Source of the DNA: a bacterium
GTDB lineage: Bacteria > Hydrothermota > 32-111
Assembly: GCA_050239825.1 (NCBI GenBank)
Contig: JBFXGO010000016.1
Location: 1 to 46,474, forward strand
Length of the DNA stretch: 46,474 bases
Direction of reading: 5' to 3'
Below, in pieces: positions 33,544-46,474 of this stretch (position 1 is the first letter of the stretch; the number at the start of each line of letters is the position of its first letter). A program made the translations under genes and the position numbers. Under the pieces are notes generated by a model that was not told the DNA's origin, did no database searches, and saw only the letters and a list, made by a program, of their open reading frames with translations.

Positions 33544-34298
33544 AAGTGACAATACTCGGGTCAGGCACATCAACAGGAGTGCCTGTAATAGGATGCAAAT
33601 GCAGTGTCTGCTCCTCGGATGATTTAAAAGACAAAAGGACCCGCCCCGGAGTGCTTCTTAGCAAGGATAGATTCAATATACTGATTGATGCTTCGCAGGA
33701 GCTTAGACTGCAGCTGATAAACAGAACAGACAAAATAGATGCAATAATTATTACCCATGCGCATGCAGACCATATATTCGGACTTGATGACACAAGGGTG
33801 ATATCAATGAGATACAGCAAAGAGATGCCGATATATTGTTCGCAGGAGACCAAGAGAGAGATAATGAATATCTACTCGTATGTTTTCAGGGAGACTCAGG
33901 AGGGCGGAGGCAAACCGAAATTTGTTTTTCATGATATAGAAAATATAAATAATCTTGGTCCGTTCAAAGTGAAATCATTCAAGGTCTATCATGGAAAGAT
34001 GAAGATTGACGCATTCATAATAGATAAACTCGCAGTAGTGATGGATGCCTCTTACATTGGGAGAGAGGAGAGAGAGCTTATAAAGGATAATGCTGAGAGT
34101 ATAATAATCAACGGACTGAGGATGAGGCCTCACACAACTCATTTTTCAATATCCGAATCAGCATGCCTTATAAGAGCCCTCGGAATGAAGAGGGGATATA
34201 TACTGCATCTTTCGCATGACCTAAAACAAGAGGATCTCGAAAAAATTCTTCCCGAAAAAGTTTTTGCGGGATATGACGGAATGGAATTTGACGCATGA
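33540..34298 (+). CDS. MBL-fold metallo-hydrolase (PhnP-like)
   Basis: LGSGTSTGVPVIGCKCSVC, THAHADHIFGLDD, HLSH, GYDG. Confidence 0.92.
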   Translation: MKVTILGSGTSTGVPVIGCKCSVCSSDDLKDKRTRPGVLLSKDRFNILIDASQELRLQLINRTDKIDAIIITHAHADHIFGLDDTRVISMRYSKEMPIYCSQETKREIMNIYSYVFRETQEGGGKPKFVFHDIENINNLGPFKVKSFKVYHGKMKIDAFIIDKLAVVMDASYIGREERELIKDNAESIIINGLRMRPHTTHFSISESACLIRALGMKRGYILHLSHDLKQEDLEKILPEKVFAGYDGMEFDA

Positions 34299-36283
34299 CT
34301 GATTTTAAAGTTGTTTCACGATACTCTCCTGCCGGAGATCAGCCAAAGGCGATTGAAGAACTTTACAGAGGCATTGAGGAGAAAAAAAAGTATCAGGTGC
34401 TTCTCGGAATAACAGGTTCCGGAAAGACATACACGATGGCAAAAGTCATTGAGAGAGCCAATTTGCCGGTGCTGATACTCTCACACAACAAGACTCTTGC
34501 CGCTCAGCTTTACGGGGAGCTTAAATCTCTCTTCCCTCACAATGCAGTCGAATACTTTGTCTCATACTATGACTATTATCAGCCGGAGGCATACCTTCCC
34601 GCAAAGGATGTGTACATTGAGAAAGAGGCGACTATAAATGAATACATAGACAAAATGCGCCTTAGAGCGACTGCATCTTTATATGAAAGGGATGATGTTA
34701 TTATAGTCTCGTCAGTCTCATCAATATATACTTTGGGCTCTCCGGAGGATTATAACAATACAATTTTCAGCATAAGAAGAGGCAATTCATTGAGTCAGGA
34801 AAAGCTGATTGACAATCTCATTATGATGCAGTATGAGAGAAATGACATTGATTTCAAAAGGGCGAGATTCAGGGTTATGGGAGACACTATTGATATTTTC
34901 CCTTCTCATCTCGACTCTCCTGTGAAAGTGCAGTTCTTTGGCGATGAGATTGAGGAATTATTCGTGTTTGACGAATTGAATAATTCAAAAATAGAGGATA
35001 AAGAGGTTGTGTCAATGTTTCCCGCAAAGCATTTCATGTCAGGAGATGAAAAAATAAAAAGAGCCGTTGTCTCTATAAGAGAGGAACTGAAGGAGAGGGT
35101 AACTGAACTCAGGGGAATGGGGAAGATGCTTGAAGCTGAACGCCTGAATTCAAGAACCAACTATGACCTTGAGATGATGAAAGAGGTGGGATACTGCTCC
35201 GGAATTGAAAATTATTCCAGACATATTGACGGACGCGCTGAAGGGCAGAGGCCATATACTCTTGTAGATTATTTTAGAGGAGATTTTCTCACAGTAATAG
35301 ATGAATCGCATGTGACAATACCGCAGATAAGGGGAATGTACAATGGAGACAGAGCGAGAAAAATGAATCTTGTGGATTACGGATTCCGCTTGAAATCTGC
35401 TCTTGACAACAGACCTTTGAAACTGAATGAATTTGAAACAATAACCAAATCTATTGTCTGCATGTCCGCCACTCCTGAAGCGTATGAAATTGACAGGTCC
35501 GACGGCAAGGTTACTGAGATGATAATCCGGCCTACAGGTCTTATAGACCCTGAGGTCGTAATAAAGAAATCAGAAAACCAGATTGATGACCTTATGAATG
35601 AGATAAAAAATGTTGTGGATAGGGAGGAGAGGGTTCTGGTCACAACTCTGACAAAGAGGATGGCTGAATCCCTGACCGACTATCTGAAGCAGAGGAATTT
35701 CAGAGTCAAGTATATGCATTCGGATATCGATTCGATTGAGAGAGTTTCAATAATCAGGGGGCTCAGGCTCAAGGAATTTGATGTTCTTGTCGGGATAAAT
35801 CTTTTAAGAGAGGGGCTTGACCTTCCGGAGGTCTCTCTTGTGGCTATCCTTGATGCAGACAAAGAAGGTTTTTTAAGGAGCGAGACATCTCTTATCCAGA
35901 CAATAGGAAGAGCTTCGAGAAATGTGAGGGGAAGGGTCATTCTTTATGCGGACAAGATGACAAAATCCATCGATAAAGCAGTCTCTACGACAAACAAAAG
36001 AAGGGAATCCCAGATGAAGTATAATGAACTTATGGGGATCACTCCAAAGTCCATTTCAAGGTCTATTGAGGATATACTCGTTTTGACTGATGTAGCATCA
36101 AATGCGGATGTTGAGGAGGAAATAGAGACAAAGACAGAATCGATGTCAAACATAGAGAGGATGGAGCTTTTGGATTCTCTCACAAAGAAGATGCACGAGC
36201 TGTCCGCAGAGCTAGAATTTGAAAAAGCGGCCGAGGTGAGAGATATGATAAGAAAGGTAAGGAAAGAGATTAAGGATAATTGA
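34295..36283 (+). CDS. uvrB: Excinuclease ABC subunit B
   Basis: PAGDQP, GITGSGKT, FVSYYDYYQPEAY, DESH, GINLLREGLDLPEV, C-terminal UVR coil LEFEKAAEVRD. Confidence 0.99.
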   Translation: MTDFKVVSRYSPAGDQPKAIEELYRGIEEKKKYQVLLGITGSGKTYTMAKVIERANLPVLILSHNKTLAAQLYGELKSLFPHNAVEYFVSYYDYYQPEAYLPAKDVYIEKEATINEYIDKMRLRATASLYERDDVIIVSSVSSIYTLGSPEDYNNTIFSIRRGNSLSQEKLIDNLIMMQYERNDIDFKRARFRVMGDTIDIFPSHLDSPVKVQFFGDEIEELFVFDELNNSKIEDKEVVSMFPAKHFMSGDEKIKRAVVSIREELKERVTELRGMGKMLEAERLNSRTNYDLEMMKEVGYCSGIENYSRHIDGRAEGQRPYTLVDYFRGDFLTVIDESHVTIPQIRGMYNGDRARKMNLVDYGFRLKSALDNRPLKLNEFETITKSIVCMSATPEAYEIDRSDGKVTEMIIRPTGLIDPEVVIKKSENQIDDLMNEIKNVVDREERVLVTTLTKRMAESLTDYLKQRNFRVKYMHSDIDSIERVSIIRGLRLKEFDVLVGINLLREGLDLPEVSLVAILDADKEGFLRSETSLIQTIGRASRNVRGRVILYADKMTKSIDKAVSTTNKRRESQMKYNELMGITPKSISRSIEDILVLTDVASNADVEEEIETKTESMSNIERMELLDSLTKKMHELSAELEFEKAAEVRDMIRKVRKEIKDN

Positions 36284-36319
36284 GAAAAGTTAAAACTGCT
36301 ATCTTAGCCTAATATAATC

Positions 36320-36348
36320 TTGACCCGAAAAGAGCATTGTAGTATGAT
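36320..36348 (+). promoter_or_regulatory. Sigma70-type promoter heading the cassette array
   Basis: TTGACC-17 bp-TATGAT, followed by AGGAGG and the ATG at 36369. Confidence 0.65.
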
Positions 36349-36368
36349 TATTATAATCAGGAGGCAGG

Positions 36369-37307
36369 ATGAAGAGACTTTTGACATTGTTTCTTGTGAT
36401 TGGAGTAGTAGAGATGTATGGCCAGACAATAGAGGGTGAACTACAAACAGAGACACAGGCAGAGACAGATACAATACAGCAAGCAGATACGATTACTCTA
36501 CCCGATACTATTGATGTTGAAAAAAAACTACAAACCAGCGATTTTGAATTAACAGAAGATAGTTCAATAATAAAACAAAATGAAAATGACGAATTGAAAA
36601 GAAAAAATAACGAAATATATTGTTGTTGTATGCTTGATTGGAGAGGGTTTCAGAAAAGACAGAATCAAGATTCTTCAGCATATAGCATCGGATATACTTT
36701 GAATGTTTATCCCAGAGTATTTTATTCATTGTACGACGGTCGAACATTCTTAGGGGCGGATCAAGACGGATACCTTTTTGCAGGCAATCCATTTTGCTTG
36801 TTTCATAAGATTGAAGTAAGTCATAACATGAATCTATTAAATAAAATACTATTTAAAATAGGATATAATTATGAGTATTCAAATTCAATTGATAAAGTAG
36901 CAGATGTATATGTGAAATCATCTAATTTAGAATATTCCTTGCGTTATTATAACGGATTGAACCTATTTACATTTCATTCTTTGGGTATAAATATGTATAA
37001 AGAATTCGGCTGTTTTAGAATGGGATTGTCTAATGGGATTACATATATGAAACAAGAGTTTTATGCAGTATATTTAAGTGATGACGAGTGGTATGATATT
37101 GATGTAAATAGGTTTCATTATCAAATCGGTATGAATGCAGGAATTAATTATACAGTATCAAATCATGTGACACTCAATTTTGGTATGGAGTATAAAAAGT
37201 ATTTTCAAATGGCATCTTACGTGAACTACCCAAACATAATTTATGATGTAAGTAAGATAAATCCAGGAATGGTTATGCATTATATAACACTAACCTTCAA
37301 TTTTTAG
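36369..37307 (+). CDS. Cassette 1 gene A1: predicted outer-membrane beta-barrel protein
   Basis: Signal peptide shared with A2/A3, acidic Thr-rich linker, aromatic alternating strands, C-terminal YITLTFNF (BAM-type beta-signal). Confidence 0.65.
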   Translation: MKRLLTLFLVIGVVEMYGQTIEGELQTETQAETDTIQQADTITLPDTIDVEKKLQTSDFELTEDSSIIKQNENDELKRKNNEIYCCCMLDWRGFQKRQNQDSSAYSIGYTLNVYPRVFYSLYDGRTFLGADQDGYLFAGNPFCLFHKIEVSHNMNLLNKILFKIGYNYEYSNSIDKVADVYVKSSNLEYSLRYYNGLNLFTFHSLGINMYKEFGCFRMGLSNGITYMKQEFYAVYLSDDEWYDIDVNRFHYQIGMNAGINYTVSNHVTLNFGMEYKKYFQMASYVNYPNIIYDVSKINPGMVMHYITLTFNF

Positions 37308-37315
37308 GAGAAAAT

Positions 37316-39661
37316 ATGAAAAAGGTATTATTCTACATATTCATACTTTACTCTACTAACTTGTTTTCAACTCCAATAATATTCATAACAGGAATTAAAT
37401 CTGAGGGTGTGGACACAATGGGATTCCTAACATGGAATGATATCAAAAAAGAGAATCCGGACGATCCAATTTATTACTCTTGCATGCATCAAGCAGTCGG
37501 TTATAAAGGATATCAATTATCTCCAGTGTTAGATTGTAATAAATATGTTGTTTTACCTTCTGGATTAGATGAAAACACGATGTTCAATTTTTCATATTAT
37601 GATACTTCAAGTTCAATACCTGGATTAATTTCAATTTCTGCTGATAGTATTAAAGTAGGATTCAAGATATTTAATTACATTAATGCTTTGGGAGCAGAAG
37701 TTTGTGATACGATTGCTTTCCCTCCGTTTTTAAAACAGTTTAAAGACGATGAATTTGACTATTTTGAATACTTTCCCAAATATATAGATGAATTTAGGTC
37801 GTATTCAATTATAATTAATGGAGAATTAATAGCTGGCTATAAAGTGACGCAAGAGTCTAAAGTATATAGACAATATTGGCGCACCAACCGCTATGCAGAG
37901 CATTTATGTAAATTTATAGATAAAGTATTAGCAGCCACTGGTGCGAGTAAAGTTAATCTTGTGTGTCATTCAATGGGTGGATTGGTTGCAAGGGCGGCTC
38001 TAATTGGATATGGATATTCGTCAAAAGTATATAAAATAATAACCGTAGGAACACCGCATCAATCACTGGAAGGTGATGCTGGAGAGTTGTTTTATAGATT
38101 ATTTGAAGTACCAAATGAATGGCAGAGATCAGGAGAGTTGATGGAGTTAGATGTTGAATATGATTATACCTATGGTGATATTGAATTTTATGATTTAGAA
38201 ACAGGTGTCGTTACGAATTTCGCTGATATGCTTGGTTACGATGTGAGTCCAACAAAGATTGTTTGCATTTCAGGCGATAGGAATGCTGGAGTTGGAGGAA
38301 CATTATACTCCAATGAATCAAATGACGGATTTATTTTTAATAGCATCTCAAAACTTTCTCCAAACAGTCTTGCAGATTATAATCCGATTATATATGCAAG
38401 TCATTCCATGTCTGGAGATATAGGAAGTTTCGGGAATTTAGGACAATCTGAATTATCATTAACTCACTGCACTTATGTAACAGAATTCATAAAAAAATGG
38501 CTTATAGATGATACCATAATTGAATTTACTGGAACTGCTGAGGATTTAGATGCTAAATTTTATGTGGTTAACGATGAGGAAGGCAATAAAACTTCTCGTT
38601 CAGTTAGAGTTCAAATTGAAAATAACGGAACATCCAATATTAATTATGGGGATTTTTTGTCGTTATTAGCTTATCCCATAGAGAAAATTGTAATAAGTGG
38701 TGATACCAATGAGAAAAGCCCATATGTTGGAATATCATTATCTAATGCGTATAACAATAATAGAATTATAGGTAATCCGATGGGAAGTCCAATCTTTATG
38801 ATGAATTGTGAATATAATAACACTACTTTTGATTTAACAGATGAATATCGCTCTGCAATTTATTTATATGATATGAAAGGACTAATAACCACTGATAAAA
38901 TTTACAATTATGCTCCTTTCGACAACTGGGTGAATGCTGAAGCACCGTATGTTAAGTTGCTGCCAAGCGCAACAGTTTTAACAGTGTTTACAGCTCTAAA
39001 CACATACACTATCGACTGGGAATCAAATGATATAGCTGTAAGGAATAGACTGTGGTATATAAGAGCTGGAAGTATAGAGATAATAGACAGCATGATACCC
39101 GGTTCAGCAATGAGTAAGAGTTTTAGGATACCGCCACTCAGGAGCAGTAAATCACACGGAATACCGGAGTATAATTTAATGAATATGTATCTTCGTTTTG
39201 AACTTGATGACAACGGCTATTTTTGCGAAGACAATAAATGGATAACAGTCAGTACGCCCGACTGGAACCCAGATAGTTTAAAATTAGTATATCAGGATGA
39301 GGATTCAATAAAAGTGAAATGGACAGACAGCTATAATTTAGTTGACAGAATAATAAGGTCAAACGACAACATGCAAAGGGATGTTTCTCCATTAAATACA
39401 TATACGGATACGAACTTTATAAGGGGTATGAATAACAACTATGAGGTACATTCGAGATGGGTATATCCGAACGGGGATATACTAATAAGCGAGAATGACA
39501 ATAACACACATAGAGAAACAGTGTTTGGAATACCGTGCAATGCTCCCAAAGCATATCCGATAGCTTGTATTTGGCAGCCAAACAATAAGGCATTGATAAA
39601 GTGGGTTGATAATTCAAGAAAAAGTGCTAATATGGGATTATATAATCAGGAGGCAGGATGA
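37316..39661 (+). CDS. Cassette 1 gene B1: secreted lipase-like alpha/beta-hydrolase, truncated in an FN3-like domain
   Basis: Signal peptide, KVNLVCHSMGG nucleophile elbow, TVGTPH, NDG, ASHS; ends WVDNS plus the junction-encoded tail RKSANMGLYNQEAG. Confidence 0.8.
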   Translation: MKKVLFYIFILYSTNLFSTPIIFITGIKSEGVDTMGFLTWNDIKKENPDDPIYYSCMHQAVGYKGYQLSPVLDCNKYVVLPSGLDENTMFNFSYYDTSSSIPGLISISADSIKVGFKIFNYINALGAEVCDTIAFPPFLKQFKDDEFDYFEYFPKYIDEFRSYSIIINGELIAGYKVTQESKVYRQYWRTNRYAEHLCKFIDKVLAATGASKVNLVCHSMGGLVARAALIGYGYSSKVYKIITVGTPHQSLEGDAGELFYRLFEVPNEWQRSGELMELDVEYDYTYGDIEFYDLETGVVTNFADMLGYDVSPTKIVCISGDRNAGVGGTLYSNESNDGFIFNSISKLSPNSLADYNPIIYASHSMSGDIGSFGNLGQSELSLTHCTYVTEFIKKWLIDDTIIEFTGTAEDLDAKFYVVNDEEGNKTSRSVRVQIENNGTSNINYGDFLSLLAYPIEKIVISGDTNEKSPYVGISLSNAYNNNRIIGNPMGSPIFMMNCEYNNTTFDLTDEYRSAIYLYDMKGLITTDKIYNYAPFDNWVNAEAPYVKLLPSATVLTVFTALNTYTIDWESNDIAVRNRLWYIRAGSIEIIDSMIPGSAMSKSFRIPPLRSSKSHGIPEYNLMNMYLRFELDDNGYFCEDNKWITVSTPDWNPDSLKLVYQDEDSIKVKWTDSYNLVDRIIRSNDNMQRDVSPLNTYTDTNFIRGMNNNYEVHSRWVYPNGDILISENDNNTHRETVFGIPCNAPKAYPIACIWQPNNKALIKWVDNSRKSANMGLYNQEAG
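39390..39617 (+). repeat. 228-bp direct repeat shared with 45852-46079
   Basis: Manual alignment at offset 6462 shows a single mismatch (C39499 / T45961); identity stops after ttgataattcaa. Confidence 0.95.
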
Positions 39662-39729
39662 AGAGACTTTTGACACTGATTCTTGTGATTGGAGTATTGG
39701 GGCTATACGGACAGACAACAGAGGGTGAA
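39539..39729 (+). repeat. Cassette junction repeat J1
   Basis: 191 bp matching 42755-42945 (offset 3216) with 11 mismatches; the core 39614-39664 is identical. Confidence 0.95.
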
Positions 39730-40668
39730 CTACAGATAGAAGCTGATACAACACAAAATGAAGATACAATAATTAAAGTCGATACTATTGGTGCTGAGAA
39801 TTTATCGATTGAGGGAGATACCGTTTCAACCATTGAAGAAAACATTGAAAGCATGAGTGTTTCAAGTAAGGGCAATGATGATTCACTGATTACAATAAAG
39901 AAGAATCCATGGCTTTATGATTGGAGATATGGGTGTTTGACAGATGGTCTGACCTATTTAATACCGATGATAACACTTTATTCAATTGCCGAGAAGGTTG
40001 ATGATAAATTTTTACCTCTTGATAATTACTGCACCCCATGTATATATCCAATAGGATTAGTCTTTGCTGAAAGGATGTTAAAGAGTATAATTTTAGAAAA
40101 AACTGAATATGAAATTAAATCAAAATCAAATTTATCTATTTGCTTCCAAACTGGACCATCACTTCCTCATTATACTAAACTGTTTGATTCTCAAGAAGGA
40201 GTTATCTTTCCATCCGTATCAATGATTTTACTAGCAAATTTTAAAGTCAAGTATGATTTTCAAATTAATCAGGACCTGAAATTATGTATAAATATTGATT
40301 ACTATGATCATTTTTATTTACGGAATATTAATCCGGGATTTATTTCTACAAGTTTTGGGTTGGAAATAAAGGGTTTTGATATTAATTTAGAGAAAGTCAT
40401 TTTTGGATATTATAATGAAATATCCCAAGGTCAATACCAAAAATTTGTATCAAATGAATATAAAATAATTGAAATTGATAGTAGCTACATAGTTAATTTC
40501 AAGTATGACTTCTGGGGTGTTGGAATTGGCTGGAGTAAAAAGTATAAGATATGGAAAGAACTATATATTGAACCAATGTTGAGTTATAAATTCATTTATA
40601 CATTCGATTTTAGTTCAGGAAGCATAGTTTGTCTTGCTGGTGGCTTGGGAATAGGTTATAGCTTTTAG
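39658..40668 (+). CDS. Cassette 2 gene A2: predicted outer-membrane beta-barrel protein
   Basis: Shared signal peptide MKRLLTLILVIGVLGLYGQTTEGE; C-terminal GGLGIGYSF beta-signal. Confidence 0.65.
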   Translation: MKRLLTLILVIGVLGLYGQTTEGELQIEADTTQNEDTIIKVDTIGAENLSIEGDTVSTIEENIESMSVSSKGNDDSLITIKKNPWLYDWRYGCLTDGLTYLIPMITLYSIAEKVDDKFLPLDNYCTPCIYPIGLVFAERMLKSIILEKTEYEIKSKSNLSICFQTGPSLPHYTKLFDSQEGVIFPSVSMILLANFKVKYDFQINQDLKLCINIDYYDHFYLRNINPGFISTSFGLEIKGFDINLEKVIFGYYNEISQGQYQKFVSNEYKIIEIDSSYIVNFKYDFWGVGIGWSKKYKIWKELYIEPMLSYKFIYTFDFSSGSIVCLAGGLGIGYSF

Positions 40669-40677
40669 GAGGAAAAA

Positions 40678-42877
40678 TTGAAAAATAGTATTTTATTAAT
40701 TATTTTATTATTTTCATTTTTATTTGCATATTCTAATGAAGTATTACCAAACATCATATTTATTCACGGAATAAGCGAAGAGGCAATACCAGATTTAAAA
40801 AGAGATAATGATGATGGATATAAGAAAGGTTCACTATTTTCATGGCATCCTTTGCGATATAATGAATCTTTAGGAAAGTATATAGAAGTGGACAGCACGG
40901 CTTTGCTTAGAATATTAGGTTATAAAGGATACAAAAAAGGGAGTCCCTTTGACTGCACAATAGACTCATATCCAAGAGATGCTTCCGGGAATGTTGTTTA
41001 CAATTTTAGCTATTATAATCCGGATGGAGATACTGGTGTTATTGGGAGCGGAGAGGATGAAGCCGGTAATCCCTTATTTATTCCAGCTTCTGAAAAATAT
41101 CAAGACGATTATTTGCTTGCATTCAAGCATGGCCAATGGGCAAAACACGTTGCTGTTTTCATAGAAAAAGTTTATAACAAGTCAGGAAAGAAAGTTTATA
41201 TAGTTGCTCATTCAATGGGAGGACCTGTAGTAAGAGCTGCAATGACTTTCTATGGAGCAGGAGAATATGTCGCGAAAGTAATAACTATAGGTTCTCCAAA
41301 CCTTCCCTTTACTCAATTTGATGCTGTTGAGGATTTTGTAGCAAATGTAGCTGATTATCATGAATGGCAAGAGGTAGGAGAATTGCTGGAATTGGGTGCA
41401 GATGTTGAACTCCATGCCGGTAGTGTTGCTTTTGTTTCAACTTCAAATCCTACTTTAATTAAGCCATATTTGGAATTTTTATATGACAATGATTTTATAA
41501 GGCTAAATAGAGGAAGCGTTAAATTAGCAACCGTTGTTGGAGCGAGGAAAACCATTTTGATGTCAATGTTGGAACAAAATGATGGTTTCATACCATGTTC
41601 ACAACAGAGCTTGGATTTTGCAGAAAGAAAACCTATAATATACGCAAGTCATTCAAGATTGAAAGAGTTTTTGAAAGTACCAATAAATGACACAATTCCT
41701 GAATACGCTGAGCAATATTCTACATTTCTTATCGAATTCATCAAGCATTGGATGATAGATGATACAGTCATAATTTATGATAAGAATAAACTGTCATCTT
41801 TGTCGGGGAATTTTGGATTTTACCCAAATGAAGAAAACCCGACGTCACGGTCTTTACGGCTATTAATTAATAGCTTAGATTCATACAATAACAAAACATA
41901 ATAATGGGATAATGGCAGTAGTGGGAACTACATTAAAAGAAAACTTTGATTCACGGGATGACATAGGGCCAACATATGCATATGATTTATCAGTATTATC
42001 AGAAAACAATAGAGTCAGAGGCCAACTAAGCGGAAGCCCTCTTTATACAAGTTTCTGCGGATATGATGATAAAGAAAATGATGTTTACTATTCGAGAATA
42101 TGGTTATATGACATGAACGGATACATTTTCCCTGATAGCGGGAACATGACAATTCCGCATGAATTGAGTTGGAAAAGCGCCACCGCGCCTTTTGTTGAAA
42201 TCAGATCAAAAATGCCTGTTACAAAAGCATTTAACAGCTATACTTTTGCTTGGAAGAGTAATGACATTTCGGCGAAATGTGATTTAAAAGTGCGAAACAC
42301 CTCCCTTGGTGAATATTGGTTGAAGGATATAGCATTGGCAAATTTGAACTATACATATAAGATAGCTCCAATGAGCAGTGGAAAGAGCATAACTGAAAGC
42401 AAGTTTAAGTTAAGGTTTCATCTTGATGATTATAAAAATTGGATTGAAGATTCCATAGGATCATATACACATACTCCCGACTGGAACTCAGACACATTAA
42501 AATTAGTATATCAGGATGAGGATTCGGTAAAAATATCATGGAAAGATCTGTATCATAATGAGGATTTAATATTTAGAAATGATGTGTTAATTGGAAGTTC
42601 GCCGTACAGAAATAGCTTTGTTGACAGTGATTATGAATTTAACACAGACTATACATATAGAGTAAATTCCGTATATCATTATACTTCAACCGATTCAATT
42701 GTCAGTATAAACGATAATTCTACAAATTATCTTTCTGTTAAAACGAATAGTTTAAATGCTCCCAAAGCATATCCGATAGCGTGTATCTGGCAACCTAACA
42801 ATAAGGCATTGATAAAATGGATTGACAACTCAAGAAAAAGTGCTAATATGGGATTATATAATCAGGAGGCAGGATGA
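40678..42877 (+). pseudogene. Cassette 2 gene B2: lipase-like hydrolase split by a +1 frameshift (ORFs 40678-41901 and 41912-42877) and truncated at the junction
   Basis: IIFIHG, AHSMGG, NDG, ASHS in the first ORF; the second ORF is collinear with the C-terminal halves of B1/B3; an extra A near 41900. Confidence 0.8.
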
Positions 42878-42945
42878 AGAAACTTTTGACATTGTTTCTT
42901 GTGATTGGAGTATTGGGGCTATACGGACAGACAACAGAGGGTGAA
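42755..42945 (+). repeat. Cassette junction repeat J2
   Basis: Copy of 39539-39729. Confidence 0.95.
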
Positions 42946-43824
42946 ATACAGACAGAAGCAACTACAACACAGCAGGTGGATACAATTACTCTACCCGATA
43001 CTATTGATGTTAAAGAATTGCAGATTGAAGATGATACAGCTTCATCAATTAAAGATTCATTATTTACGGGAGAAAGCAAAAAAGACCAAAAAGAGATAAT
43101 AGAAAAGAAGGATAGCCCGATATCATGCTGTTTAAACGGAAAAACCCAATCGGAACAAAAATCGAAATGGAACTTTGGAATAGGGTATGTCGCTGAATAT
43201 AATTATGCCGGACCCCATTTGACAGCAGATTATTTGGACAGAGTTGAATGGTTCGGTGAACTAAGCTTAAATCAACTGTTGACATTATTTAATTATTGGA
43301 TGAATGGTGCTGAAATGTATATAAAATGCTCAAAATTAAACAGATTATTCTTAAGCAATACAACAAGCTATGCATACACAGAAAGAACCAATTGTGCAAT
43401 TATGACAGATTATGTCATTCTTGATGATTCAACTTTAGCAGCAAATTATAATGTTTATAATATAAAGAAAATTTCTTCTAGTTTTTTATTTTCTAAAAAT
43501 AACTTTGTTTTTGGTGGACCTTGTATTGAAATTACAGATGTAGCAGGATTAGAAACTCTATATAAACGAAAGGATGAACAATGGCAAAAAGATAGTACAA
43601 AAGTCCAAAGGATTGGATTGGGCCTGGGAGTTGCTTTCAGAGTTATATATAATTCAATGCAGGTGAATAATATGAAATTGCCAATATTATGGTTTGGAAT
43701 AAGAATAGGTCAAACGATAGAGGTGTGGAATAACTCGCCATGGAAGGAAGTTTGGTGTGATAGCAAACTTATAGTTGGTTTCACTGGCATTAATTTCGGG
43801 CTTCAACTAAATTGGGGAAAATAA
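42874..43824 (+). CDS. Cassette 3 gene A3: predicted outer-membrane beta-barrel protein
   Basis: Shared signal peptide, DTITLPDTIDV shared with A1, IGLGLGVAFR strand, C-terminal GINFGLQLNWGK. Confidence 0.6.
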   Translation: MKKLLTLFLVIGVLGLYGQTTEGEIQTEATTTQQVDTITLPDTIDVKELQIEDDTASSIKDSLFTGESKKDQKEIIEKKDSPISCCLNGKTQSEQKSKWNFGIGYVAEYNYAGPHLTADYLDRVEWFGELSLNQLLTLFNYWMNGAEMYIKCSKLNRLFLSNTTSYAYTERTNCAIMTDYVILDDSTLAANYNVYNIKKISSSFLFSKNNFVFGGPCIEITDVAGLETLYKRKDEQWQKDSTKVQRIGLGLGVAFRVIYNSMQVNNMKLPILWFGIRIGQTIEVWNNSPWKEVWCDSKLIVGFTGINFGLQLNWGK

Positions 43825-43825
43825 A

Positions 43826-46474
43826 ATGAAAAATATATTGATTTTATCTCTTGTAATGCTTATTTCGATATTAGTTACATCCGATAATATACCTCAAATC
43901 TATATTCACGGAACAAAGTCTGAGGCAGTACCCCTGCTTAGGTTTTTTGATTTAACAAAACTCAAAATAGTTTTAGCTGGTGGTTGGACTACTTGGTATC
44001 CAATGGATCCAATAGATTCTTCTCTACTTTTTCCAACTGCAATGACACGAATAGTTGAGGAGGGATATGATGGTTATAGGTATGGAAAAACAATCGATGG
44101 CGAAGATGCAGTAATGTGTGATAAGAATACTGAATTAATGATTACGAATTATCCAAAATCGGTTTATAATTTTTCATATTATCGTCAAGACGGAGGACCG
44201 GGAATAATCGGGAGCAACGGACGACTTGAATGTATGGTTCAAAAAAATGTTAAAATTTATGTATGTTCGGATACGAGCGCACAAGAAATATTTCCGGAGT
44301 ATTATATGGCGAATAAAGGTACACCAAATGATATATATACAGAATCAATTAATGGATACGACTATACGGTTACAGAGATAAAGTTGTTTGATTTTACAAA
44401 TAATTCTGATGTTGAATGCTGGTCTGAAAACTTGGCAGTTTTTATTGATAAAGTGTTGGCTGCAACAGGAGCAGATAAGGTAGATTTAATATGTCATTCT
44501 ATGGGTGGAGTAGTAGCTCGAGCCGCAATTAAGTATTATGGGTGTGAAAACAAGGTTAGAAAATTGCTAACCATAGGAACACCCAATCACCCCTTTGGAA
44601 CTCGTTTTGGGGAATTACTTTATTCCTTAAATCCAACCAATCCCGAGTGGATGAAGCACGGGGAACACTGGGAAATGGATGTTGAAGAATGTGGACGAAT
44701 TCTTTTCAAAAATATTGAGACAGAGGAAACAGGCCTATATCTCGACTTGATGGGATATGATATAAATATTGAAAGAGTAGCAACTATTGTTGGTAATATC
44801 GGGGTTGATTTAATATCGGACGATAATGATGGATGCACTGGAGTTGAGCAGTCCATTTTGGACTGTGCAGAATTTAATGCAGTAATTGATGCAACTCATT
44901 CATCAAGTGAAGAAAATTTAGAGCATTGTGAATGTACAAGTACCTATGTAACATCTTTTATTAAAAGCTGGATGATTGATGGCGACAGCTTTGTGTTTGA
45001 TGGAGAGATAACAGATTATGGATTTGGGATTGTTGGAAATATAAATAATCCCACCTCAAAATCAATCCGACTGATTGTTGATGGAACAGATGAATTTGGT
45101 AATGATTTAAAGAGTTACGAAGGAATATTGTGCGGTGTTGTGACATCAATTTATGAACATCAGAACATTACAGATGATGTCGGTCCTACAATGGGAATAG
45201 ATTTTACAAACATTACAAATAACAATAGAAAACCTGGCATTCTAAGAGGCAGTCCGATTTACTTGAAGGAGTGTCCGTGGTCAAGTAATGCAATATTCAC
45301 AAAATATCATCCAAAGGCATCCTTTTACGACATGAATGGTCTAATAGAGATTCCTGAGATAGAACATGATTATAGTTTCAACTGGGGAGATGCAATAGCT
45401 CCATATGTAGATTTGCTTCCCGGTGTTGCAGATTTTGCTCTTGCTACAGCTCTAAGCACATACACTATTAACTGGATATCGAACGACATATCAGTAAGAA
45501 ATAGATTATGGTATATAAGAGCAGGAAGTATAGAGATGATAGACAGTATGATACCGGGCTCAGCAATGAGTAAGAGTTTTAGGATACCGCCATTAAGAAG
45601 TTCAAAAACAATTCCTTCTCATCCGTCAACTTATAATCTGATGCAGTTTAATGTAAGATTTGAACTTGATGATAACGGGTATTTTTGCCAAGACAGCAAA
45701 TGGCTGACTGTCAGTACGCCCGATTGGAATCCGGATAATTTAAGCTTAGTATATCAAGATGAGGATTCGATAAAACTGGCTTGGACAGATACATTTAACT
45801 TAGTTAACAGAATAATAAGGTCAAATGACGATATGCAAAGGGATGTTTGTTCATTAAATACATATACGGATACGAACTTTATAAGGGGTATGAATAACAA
45901 CTATGAGGTACATTCGAGATGGGTATATCCGAACGGGGATATACTAATAAGCGAGAATGATAATAACACACATAGAGAAACAGTGTTTGGAATACCGTGC
46001 AATGCTCCCAAAGCATATCCGATAGCTTGTATTTGGCAGCCAAACAATAAGGCATTGATAAAGTGGGTTGATAATTCAAATCATGAGGATGGATATAGGA
46101 TAAAGATAAAGGAAAACGATACACTTAAAGGAACAAAGGATACAATAATAAATTTAGCGGAGGATCCTGACACATTGGAATGGATACATCAAACAACGAG
46201 AACAGGGCAAATGAAGTATATTGTATATTCAATGAATAAAGGAGCATTTTCAAAAGATTCTGTTGAATATATCAATTATAGAGGATACGGGACACCGTTT
46301 GTATCATTAGATAGTATTGACCTAAGCAAAGGAACCGTAAGAATAACAGGGGATACAATAATAACGGGAACGAGGAGAAGACTGAATGGAGATATACTTT
46401 CAGTAGAATCATATAAAGAAGGAGTTGAAAATAAGATTCTAAAATCCGAATTTGTAAAAGATAGTAATGCACAG
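43826..46474 (+). CDS. Cassette 3 gene B3: untruncated secreted lipase-like hydrolase with FN3-like domains; runs off the window (at least 883 codons, absent from the ORF track)
   Basis: Manual translation from ATG 43826 (MKNILILSLVMLISILVTSDNIPQIYIHG) shows no stop: KVDLICHSMGG, TIGTPNH, DNDG, ATHS, then WVDNSNHEDGYRIKIKE continuing past the point where B1/B2 are cut. Confidence 0.88.
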   Translation, partial: MKNILILSLVMLISILVTSDNIPQIYIHGTKSEAVPLLRFFDLTKLKIVLAGGWTTWYPMDPIDSSLLFPTAMTRIVEEGYDGYRYGKTIDGEDAVMCDKNTELMITNYPKSVYNFSYYRQDGGPGIIGSNGRLECMVQKNVKIYVCSDTSAQEIFPEYYMANKGTPNDIYTESINGYDYTVTEIKLFDFTNNSDVECWSENLAVFIDKVLAATGADKVDLICHSMGGVVARAAIKYYGCENKVRKLLTIGTPNHPFGTRFGELLYSLNPTNPEWMKHGEHWEMDVEECGRILFKNIETEETGLYLDLMGYDINIERVATIVGNIGVDLISDDNDGCTGVEQSILDCAEFNAVIDATHSSSEENLEHCECTSTYVTSFIKSWMIDGDSFVFDGEITDYGFGIVGNINNPTSKSIRLIVDGTDEFGNDLKSYEGILCGVVTSIYEHQNITDDVGPTMGIDFTNITNNNRKPGILRGSPIYLKECPWSSNAIFTKYHPKASFYDMNGLIEIPEIEHDYSFNWGDAIAPYVDLLPGVADFALATALSTYTINWISNDISVRNRLWYIRAGSIEMIDSMIPGSAMSKSFRIPPLRSSKTIPSHPSTYNLMQFNVRFELDDNGYFCQDSKWLTVSTPDWNPDNLSLVYQDEDSIKLAWTDTFNLVNRIIRSNDDMQRDVCSLNTYTDTNFIRGMNNNYEVHSRWVYPNGDILISENDNNTHRETVFGIPCNAPKAYPIACIWQPNNKALIKWVDNSNHEDGYRIKIKENDTLKGTKDTIINLAEDPDTLEWIHQTTRTGQMKYIVYSMNKGAFSKDSVEYINYRGYGTPFVSLDSIDLSKGTVRITGDTIITGTRRRLNGDILSVESYKEGVENKILKSEFVKDSNAQ
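45852..46079 (+). repeat. 228-bp direct repeat shared with 39390-39617
   Basis: One mismatch relative to the B1 copy. Confidence 0.95.

Follow-up and report, generated by a model that had tools for sequence, protein, structure and literature searches.

The barrel and hydrolase genes downstream of uvrB

The window analysed here, 46,474 nucleotides long, is the whole of contig C29 of genome G000, an assembly estimated to be 98.97% complete in 67 contigs. Downstream of uvrB it carries three units in a row (A1–B1, A2–B2 and A3–B3), each made up of a gene for a barrel-type protein (A) and a hydrolase gene (B). B1 and B2 are truncated, and B3 is uncut. The features are as follows.

34295–36283: uvrB; the array begins just after it
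36320–36348, + strand: promoter-like site at the head of the array, TTGACC, 17 nt, TATGAT; a promoter type unlike that of the junctions
36369–37307, + strand: A1, barrel type 1; signal-peptide-like start (by eye), low-confidence acidic linker, OmpA-like beta-barrel
37316–39661, + strand: B1, truncated hydrolase with head type 1, a PGAP1-like alpha/beta hydrolase head
39390–39617, + strand: 228-bp homology arm in B1, with 1 difference from 45852–46079 of B3
39606–39633, + strand: J1, candidate hybrid promoter; TTGATA (B codons V-D-N), 16-nt spacer, TG-extended TAATAT
39634–39660, + strand: A leader with AGGAGG ribosome site and ATG
39658–40668, + strand: A2, barrel type 2
40678–42877, + strand: B2, truncated hydrolase with type 2 head, frameshifted 3' of the hydrolase domain; its halves are B2a (40678–41901) and B2b (41912–42877)
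42822–42849, + strand: J2, candidate hybrid promoter; TTGACA, 16 nt, TG-extended TAATAT, 10 of 12 consensus positions
42874–43824, + strand: A3, barrel type 3
43826–46474, + strand: B3, uncut hydrolase, running off the contig end
46068–46079, + strand: uncut copy of TTGATAATTCAA within the coding sequence of B3; no -10 box of the junction type follows it

The product of A had no Pfam match. Its language-model neighbours were outer-membrane barrels (score 0.97), and the best Foldseek matches of its predicted structure (pLDDT 60) were to OmpA, with E values of 2e-5 to 3e-5 at 9–10% identity. In fold, A resembles the small outer-membrane barrels OmpA, OmpX and NspA, from which it differs in being highly polymorphic and in carrying a long acidic N-terminal linker. 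Barrels of different A types are 16–50% identical, those of adjacent units 16–21%. Of the 14 genomes in the family, 7 had matches to A, which were weak in two cases.

Pfam placed a PGAP1-like alpha/beta hydrolase domain near the start of B, and the columns of the Ser, Asp and His motifs were invariant in six aligned B heads. The full-length orthologues in the related genomes G001 and G002 comprise 1,981 and 1,971 amino acids, respectively. Both matched the T9SS-type tail PF18962 (Por_Secre_tail) at their extreme C-terminus, with E values of 1e-4 to 2e-4 that lie below the curated cut-off; two paralogues reached or exceeded this cut-off, and the tail of B3 itself lies off the contig. SprA_N and PorV matches above the cut-off were found in G000. 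Complex prediction for the A1 barrel and the hydrolase domain of B1 (score 0.01, mark 0.32) was uninformative either way.

Elsewhere in the window, a protein that matches Por_Secre_tail contains LVIVD repeats, encoded by five tandem 126-bp repeats at positions 3–802. Distant barrel–hydrolase pairs with T9SS-like tails and without the junction are located at G000:C41:30564-37332, C50:3-3712 and C18:7830-10403; in the C41 pair the hydrolase is split close to its start, and in the C18 pair it is reduced to a fragment.

The junction between units and its candidate promoter

A preliminary description of this DNA held that both truncated hydrolases are cut at the same nucleotide by an invariant 51-bp junction. 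A recount agrees with its figures. J1 (39614–39664) and J2 (42830–42880) differ at 0 of 51 bases, and the 75 bases just upstream (39539–39613) differ from their partner at eight, seven of which are third codon positions and one a V/I exchange (39605). B1 and B3 are the same up to 39617 and 46079, respectively, and then part, B3 going on with NHEDGYRI. The FN3-like label given to the motif there found no Pfam match, and the AlphaFold model of B3, with a pLDDT of 38, is too poor to judge it.

The same description took the junction to be more conserved than its neighbours. Although the counts are right, a run of 51 identical bases lies within chance. Fisher's test gives p=0.021 for 8/75 against 0/51, a post hoc value for a window picked after the fact. 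When the 13 differences in the 202-bp shared block are placed at random, the probability of a run of at least 51 is P=0.27, and 50 identical bases in a row are found at 39680–39729, in A coding DNA just 3' of the junction. Taken alone, the invariance of the junction is thus weak evidence.

A consensus scan of J1 and J2 revealed TTGA(T/C)A, a 16-nt spacer and a TG-extended TAATAT, beginning at 39606 and 42822. The -10 box is followed by AGGAGG and then by the A start codon, which overlaps the stop codon of the truncated B; the B1 frame, for instance, crosses J1 and ends over the start of A2. The -35 box of the junction is spelled by the B codons I/V-D-N within W-I/V-D-N-S. In non-coding DNA 5' of G000 genes, TTGA(C/T)A..TAnnnT peaks at spacers of 16 and 17 nt (60 and 54 sites), with 5–20 sites at each of the nine other spacers among the 11 tested. 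This genome-wide peak identifies the 16–17-nt spacing as G000's own promoter grammar.

Every leader with such a -10 box and ribosome site was collected from G000, G001, G002 and the records L066, L067 and L072 (ten contigs in all), which gave 13. All 13 carried TTGA(C/T)A, at 16 nt (10 leaders) or 17 nt (3 leaders) from the -10 box; since the leaders are kin, this does not amount to 13 independent tests. The ten 16-nt versions are all different strings: the spacer drifts, and the hexamers and their spacing are kept. Four of the 13 head arrays without a cut gene in front (G000:C56, G002:C22, G002:C135 and L072). Six A starts have other upstream DNA, namely the uvrB-side heads of G000 and G001 (the same head in both, that of G001 on C35), one further G001 head, one C3 head, G010 and G012. 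The first A of L066 likewise stands without a junction-type leader, and the junction-type promoter is therefore common rather than universal. The last 20 nt of the A leader are common to all six A-type starts found in G000. From this arrangement, the 51 repeated bases most likely constitute an ordinary sigma-70 promoter together with the ribosome site of the next A gene.

A second, perfect TATAAT is located at 39641–39646 and 42857–42862, directly 5' of the ribosome site in most leaders; it is too close to that site for a transcript carrying it. Rfam gave no match within 36000–46474.

Among relatives, the invariance holds in part: the 51-mer is exact in G000 and L072, whereas the versions in G001, G002 and L067 differ. 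Junction DNA matched 8 of the 41 relatives searched, G000 included, two of the matches being marginal. From 80 scanned loci, five (L068–L072) were examined, and the other 75 matched mainly the hydrolase core. With the patterns used, no junction-type leader was found in seven distant regions (L059–L065) of the 20 regions scanned. L072 is the 5.2-kb contig JBFXJF010000070.1 from a MAG labelled Vulcanibacillus; it holds an array with the G000 junction and a C56-type head and is probably mis-binned.

Breakpoints and exchange of hydrolase heads

That homologous arrays should be cut at the same base was borne out for five of nine junctions, while the other four are cut elsewhere. The five W-x-D-N-S junctions (J1, J2, L072, G002:C105 and L067) fall into two genus-level groups, and the A allele of L067 is common to genomes of another genus. 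Of the four other cuts, two (both in G001) fall at B residue ~146, one (G000:C3) at B residue ~116 and one (L066) at A residue ~184; all four lie upstream of the -35 box. Because the match to B extends ~4 nt further in G002 and L067 than in G000, the original break probably lay after TCAAATCA, with G000 having drifted since. In L066, a remnant of the G001-type junction is, by eye, nested in front of the promoter. The head of G002:C22 and the B cut site share 28 of 31 bases; in G000, such a match occurs only at B3. The mixed breakpoints fit one old junction that would later have been trimmed by promoter-sparing deletions. A native B-like promoter could also have let the same junction form more than once.

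The designation of B1 and B2 as spare hydrolases holds up, in that heads swap on shared tails across species. Close orthologues of the full-length G001 gene are 22–54% identical to it over residues 1–500; beyond residue ~600, identity is mostly 75–97%, with dips to 53–65%. G000 has a type 3 head on its full-length gene and a spare of type 1; in G001 the full-length gene has a type 1 head and a spare is of type 3. The full-length gene of G002 carries yet another type. Three heads on such similar tails, along with the near-identical 228-bp arm, indicate that homologous recombination can promote a spare head.

B genes are mosaics. B1, for instance, is identical to the B of L072 over residues ~111–430, and its informative sites are L072-like at 14 of the 14 listed in 39295–39370 and B3-like at 20 of 20 in 39489–39610. 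Homologous exchange has thus recently acted on the very arm that would promote a spare head. By the pattern of these sites, the 228-bp arm of B1 is a recent conversion tract with B3.

Across 17 units, barrel type tracks the type of the B head (Mantel rho 0.55, p 2e-4); three of these units are near-identical, the units are kin rather than independent, and linkage alone would give co-variation. By our tally, A is intact in 11 of the 13 units without a full-length B, compared with an intact hydrolase domain in 4 of the 11 units with B sequence, B being the larger mutational target. The two spare heads of G001 end at about residue 146, before the catalytic Ser, and are of a type unlike that of its full-length gene, which makes them poor spares.

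In G000, C7 begins and C18 ends with a B tail end, the two being 91% identical; the gene neighbours in G001 make C18 the most likely continuation of the window array. No promoted (popped-out) array was seen within one population. The contigs of four runs contain no joint from B1 to B3, but contigs are blind across the near-identical arm. One low-depth joint from 42988 to 39868 may be a paralogue and was not counted, and loose ends in run X1, which may be the source sample, match L072-type alleles.

Remnants of the array occur at further loci. At the uvrB locus of G001 (G001:C35:56458-56738, L049), only the head promoter and ~44 A codons are left, which indicates gain or loss of the array at single loci. 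G000:C3:74717-77489 is a third, decayed locus, with an A-type gene, an A2-like remnant, a B2-like front that is frameshifted and ends near residue 116, a junction promoter and an intact type 1 A.

A Y1 transposase (PF01797), with inverted ends beginning GGGGACGGTGCTT, is found at G000:C56:1-135, C3:77366 and G002:C105:105-1085 (L047). The repeat interrupts several B genes and is present at many contig ends. It resembles the TIRYT elements. As a shuffling agent the repeat was set aside; its 23 matches are spread over G000.

Origin of the array and comparison with known systems

We propose that a hybrid promoter born of a duplication, combined with cassette exchange by homologous recombination, probably explains the array as a whole. 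An old tandem duplication would have joined B coding DNA at W-I/V-D-N-S(-N-H) to an A leader, which would have placed a -35 hexamer made of B codons 16 nt away from the -10 box. This junction type would then have been inherited and multiplied by unequal crossing-over, with gene conversion keeping the junctions alike within each species and later deletions creating new breakpoints while sparing the promoter. The outcome would be cassettes, each of a barrel A and the front of a hydrolase B, upstream of one full-length A–B pair. Homologous recombination, presumably dependent on RecA, in the conserved arms (the A leader and B residues ~575–750) would swap cassettes between loci and set a spare head on the conserved tail, putatively exported by the T9SS. 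Each A would be expressed from its own promoter, and this expression may be under selection. Of the cis element or recent gene conversion put forward in the preliminary description, the element is recovered as a candidate promoter with its ribosome site, and conversion is also supported, while a dedicated recombination site is not. The contrast that it drew between a functional element and one duplication scar falls away: the data fit one old scar that turned promoter and was then copied.

An alternative use of the junction, as a site-specific recombination site with a TTGA-N4-TCAA dyad, would have a recombinase insert and excise cassettes as in integrons or shufflons. It would account for the five of nine junctions cut within ~4 nt of one place in two genus-level groups, and the near-copy of the cut site at one array head (28 of 31 bases) would give direct repeats round a cassette; a Y1 (IS200-like) transposase also adjoins B fragments in G000:C56 and G002:C105. 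However, 5 of 13 leaders as against 6 of 6 uncut B genes have an intact dyad, which means that it tracks B codons. The remaining four junctions break elsewhere, and the junction sequence differs between species. The linked recombinase that had been anticipated did not appear: PF00589, PF00239 and PF01548 were searched in G000, and none lay near the array ends (the middle of the B tails is unassembled). The genome has five tyrosine-recombinase matches, one sub-threshold resolvase and no IS110, the nearest being ~47 kb from the B tail on C7. We consider site-specific recombination very unlikely; explained as a promoter, the junction needs no new recombination chemistry.

The array might instead be near-neutral debris, a chance scar that was amplified and is decaying, with the truncated B genes as pseudogenes and a promoter that is incidental or passively inherited. 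The chance level of the 51-bp run would agree with this, as would the many B fronts broken by frameshifts, early cuts or repeat insertions and the loss of nearly the whole array at the G001 uvrB locus. Against it, the hexamers and spacing are kept despite spacer drift, and A is intact more often than the hydrolase domain (11/13 versus 4/11, with B the larger target). Adjacent barrels, moreover, are of types that recur across species, and at 16–21% identity they are not decaying copies of each other. Debris is an unlikely account of the array. Variation or multiplication of the outer-membrane barrel, as a surface protein or phage receptor, is compatible with the junction mechanism and differs just in what is selected: the B fronts would be passengers that provide homology arms and the -35 source. 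The A genes, intact and with their own promoter while B fronts decay, the ~146 B codons retained per spare unit in G001, and barrels only 16–50% identical between types would suit such a role, but barrel types and head types go together across loci and species (the Mantel correlation, for which linkage alone could suffice), and the full-length tail does bear different heads. This role is quite improbable in our judgement.

Within the proposed mechanism of hybrid promoter and cassette exchange, the trait under selection would be either protection from, or display of, a cognate hydrolase, or barrel variation alone. It is possible, though doubtful, that B is a T9SS-exported, lipase-like weapon with a variable N-terminal warhead, neutralised or displayed by a cognate small outer-membrane barrel, and that its upstream spares have promoters self-assembling from toxin coding sequence at each duplication. 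The warhead of such a toxin would be N-terminal because the export signal is C-terminal. If the barrel is a cognate immunity or display protein, the logic of polymorphic toxins would extend to true T9SS cargo and to an uncultured phylum, and the barrel would be a new kind of lipase partner. The array shows the layout of an exchange system for a putative C-terminal export signal, with the variable domain first and the spares upstream.

Hybrid promoters are known from tandem-duplication junctions, where a join at short homology is amplified by homologous recombination and the -35 and -10 boxes come from different parents. Unlike in the usual cases, the junction here appears old, occurs in two genus-level groups, serves as the standard promoter of a gene family and is also found at array heads. 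It would be a clean natural case of a duplication scar turned into the standard promoter of a gene family.

Our literature search, mainly of open papers, listed no account of T9SS cargo with spare N-terminal cassettes stored upstream; such proteins may be among those in Additional File 1 of PMC3482391, and passages of PMC9424270 had no bearing on the array. The TANFOR toxins of Bacteroidetes are large signal-peptide proteins with a variable domain, proposed as T9SS cargo (PMC7073777). In these toxins the variable part is C-terminal, immunity genes lie downstream, and sorting-tail proteins are only neighbours (PMC7073777), whereas B itself carries a candidate sorting tail and varies at its N-terminus, the end that the hydrolase occupies.

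The closest parallel comes from Rhs genes. In Salmonella Typhimurium, a 522-bp arm at 95% identity between the main and orphan genes lets recombination move an orphan domain onto the main gene (PMC3967940), and promoters of Rhs loci lie inside conserved coding DNA (PMC7043789). The present array likewise has one full-length gene and fragments that share a homology arm (228 bp at 99.6%), so that recombination can set the variable domain of a fragment on the conserved body, the linked partner gene travelling along. Unlike in Rhs, CDI and MafB, the variable domain here is N-terminal, the spares lie upstream and the partner gene precedes the enzyme. The array also differs from Rhs in that the partner is an outer-membrane barrel, the conserved part bears a T9SS-type tail and the putative promoter spans the junction as a hybrid. 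Domain exchange defines polymorphic toxin systems, whose C-terminal toxin domains include lipase-like hydrolases (PMC3482391). As in those systems, three head types sit on tails that are 75–97% identical, and fragments with the arm lie upstream; the order of a C-terminal variable domain and a downstream immunity gene, however, is reversed. The array is hence not a polymorphic toxin system as defined but, by analogy, a mirror image of the Rhs orphan layout with a possible toxin–immunity role.
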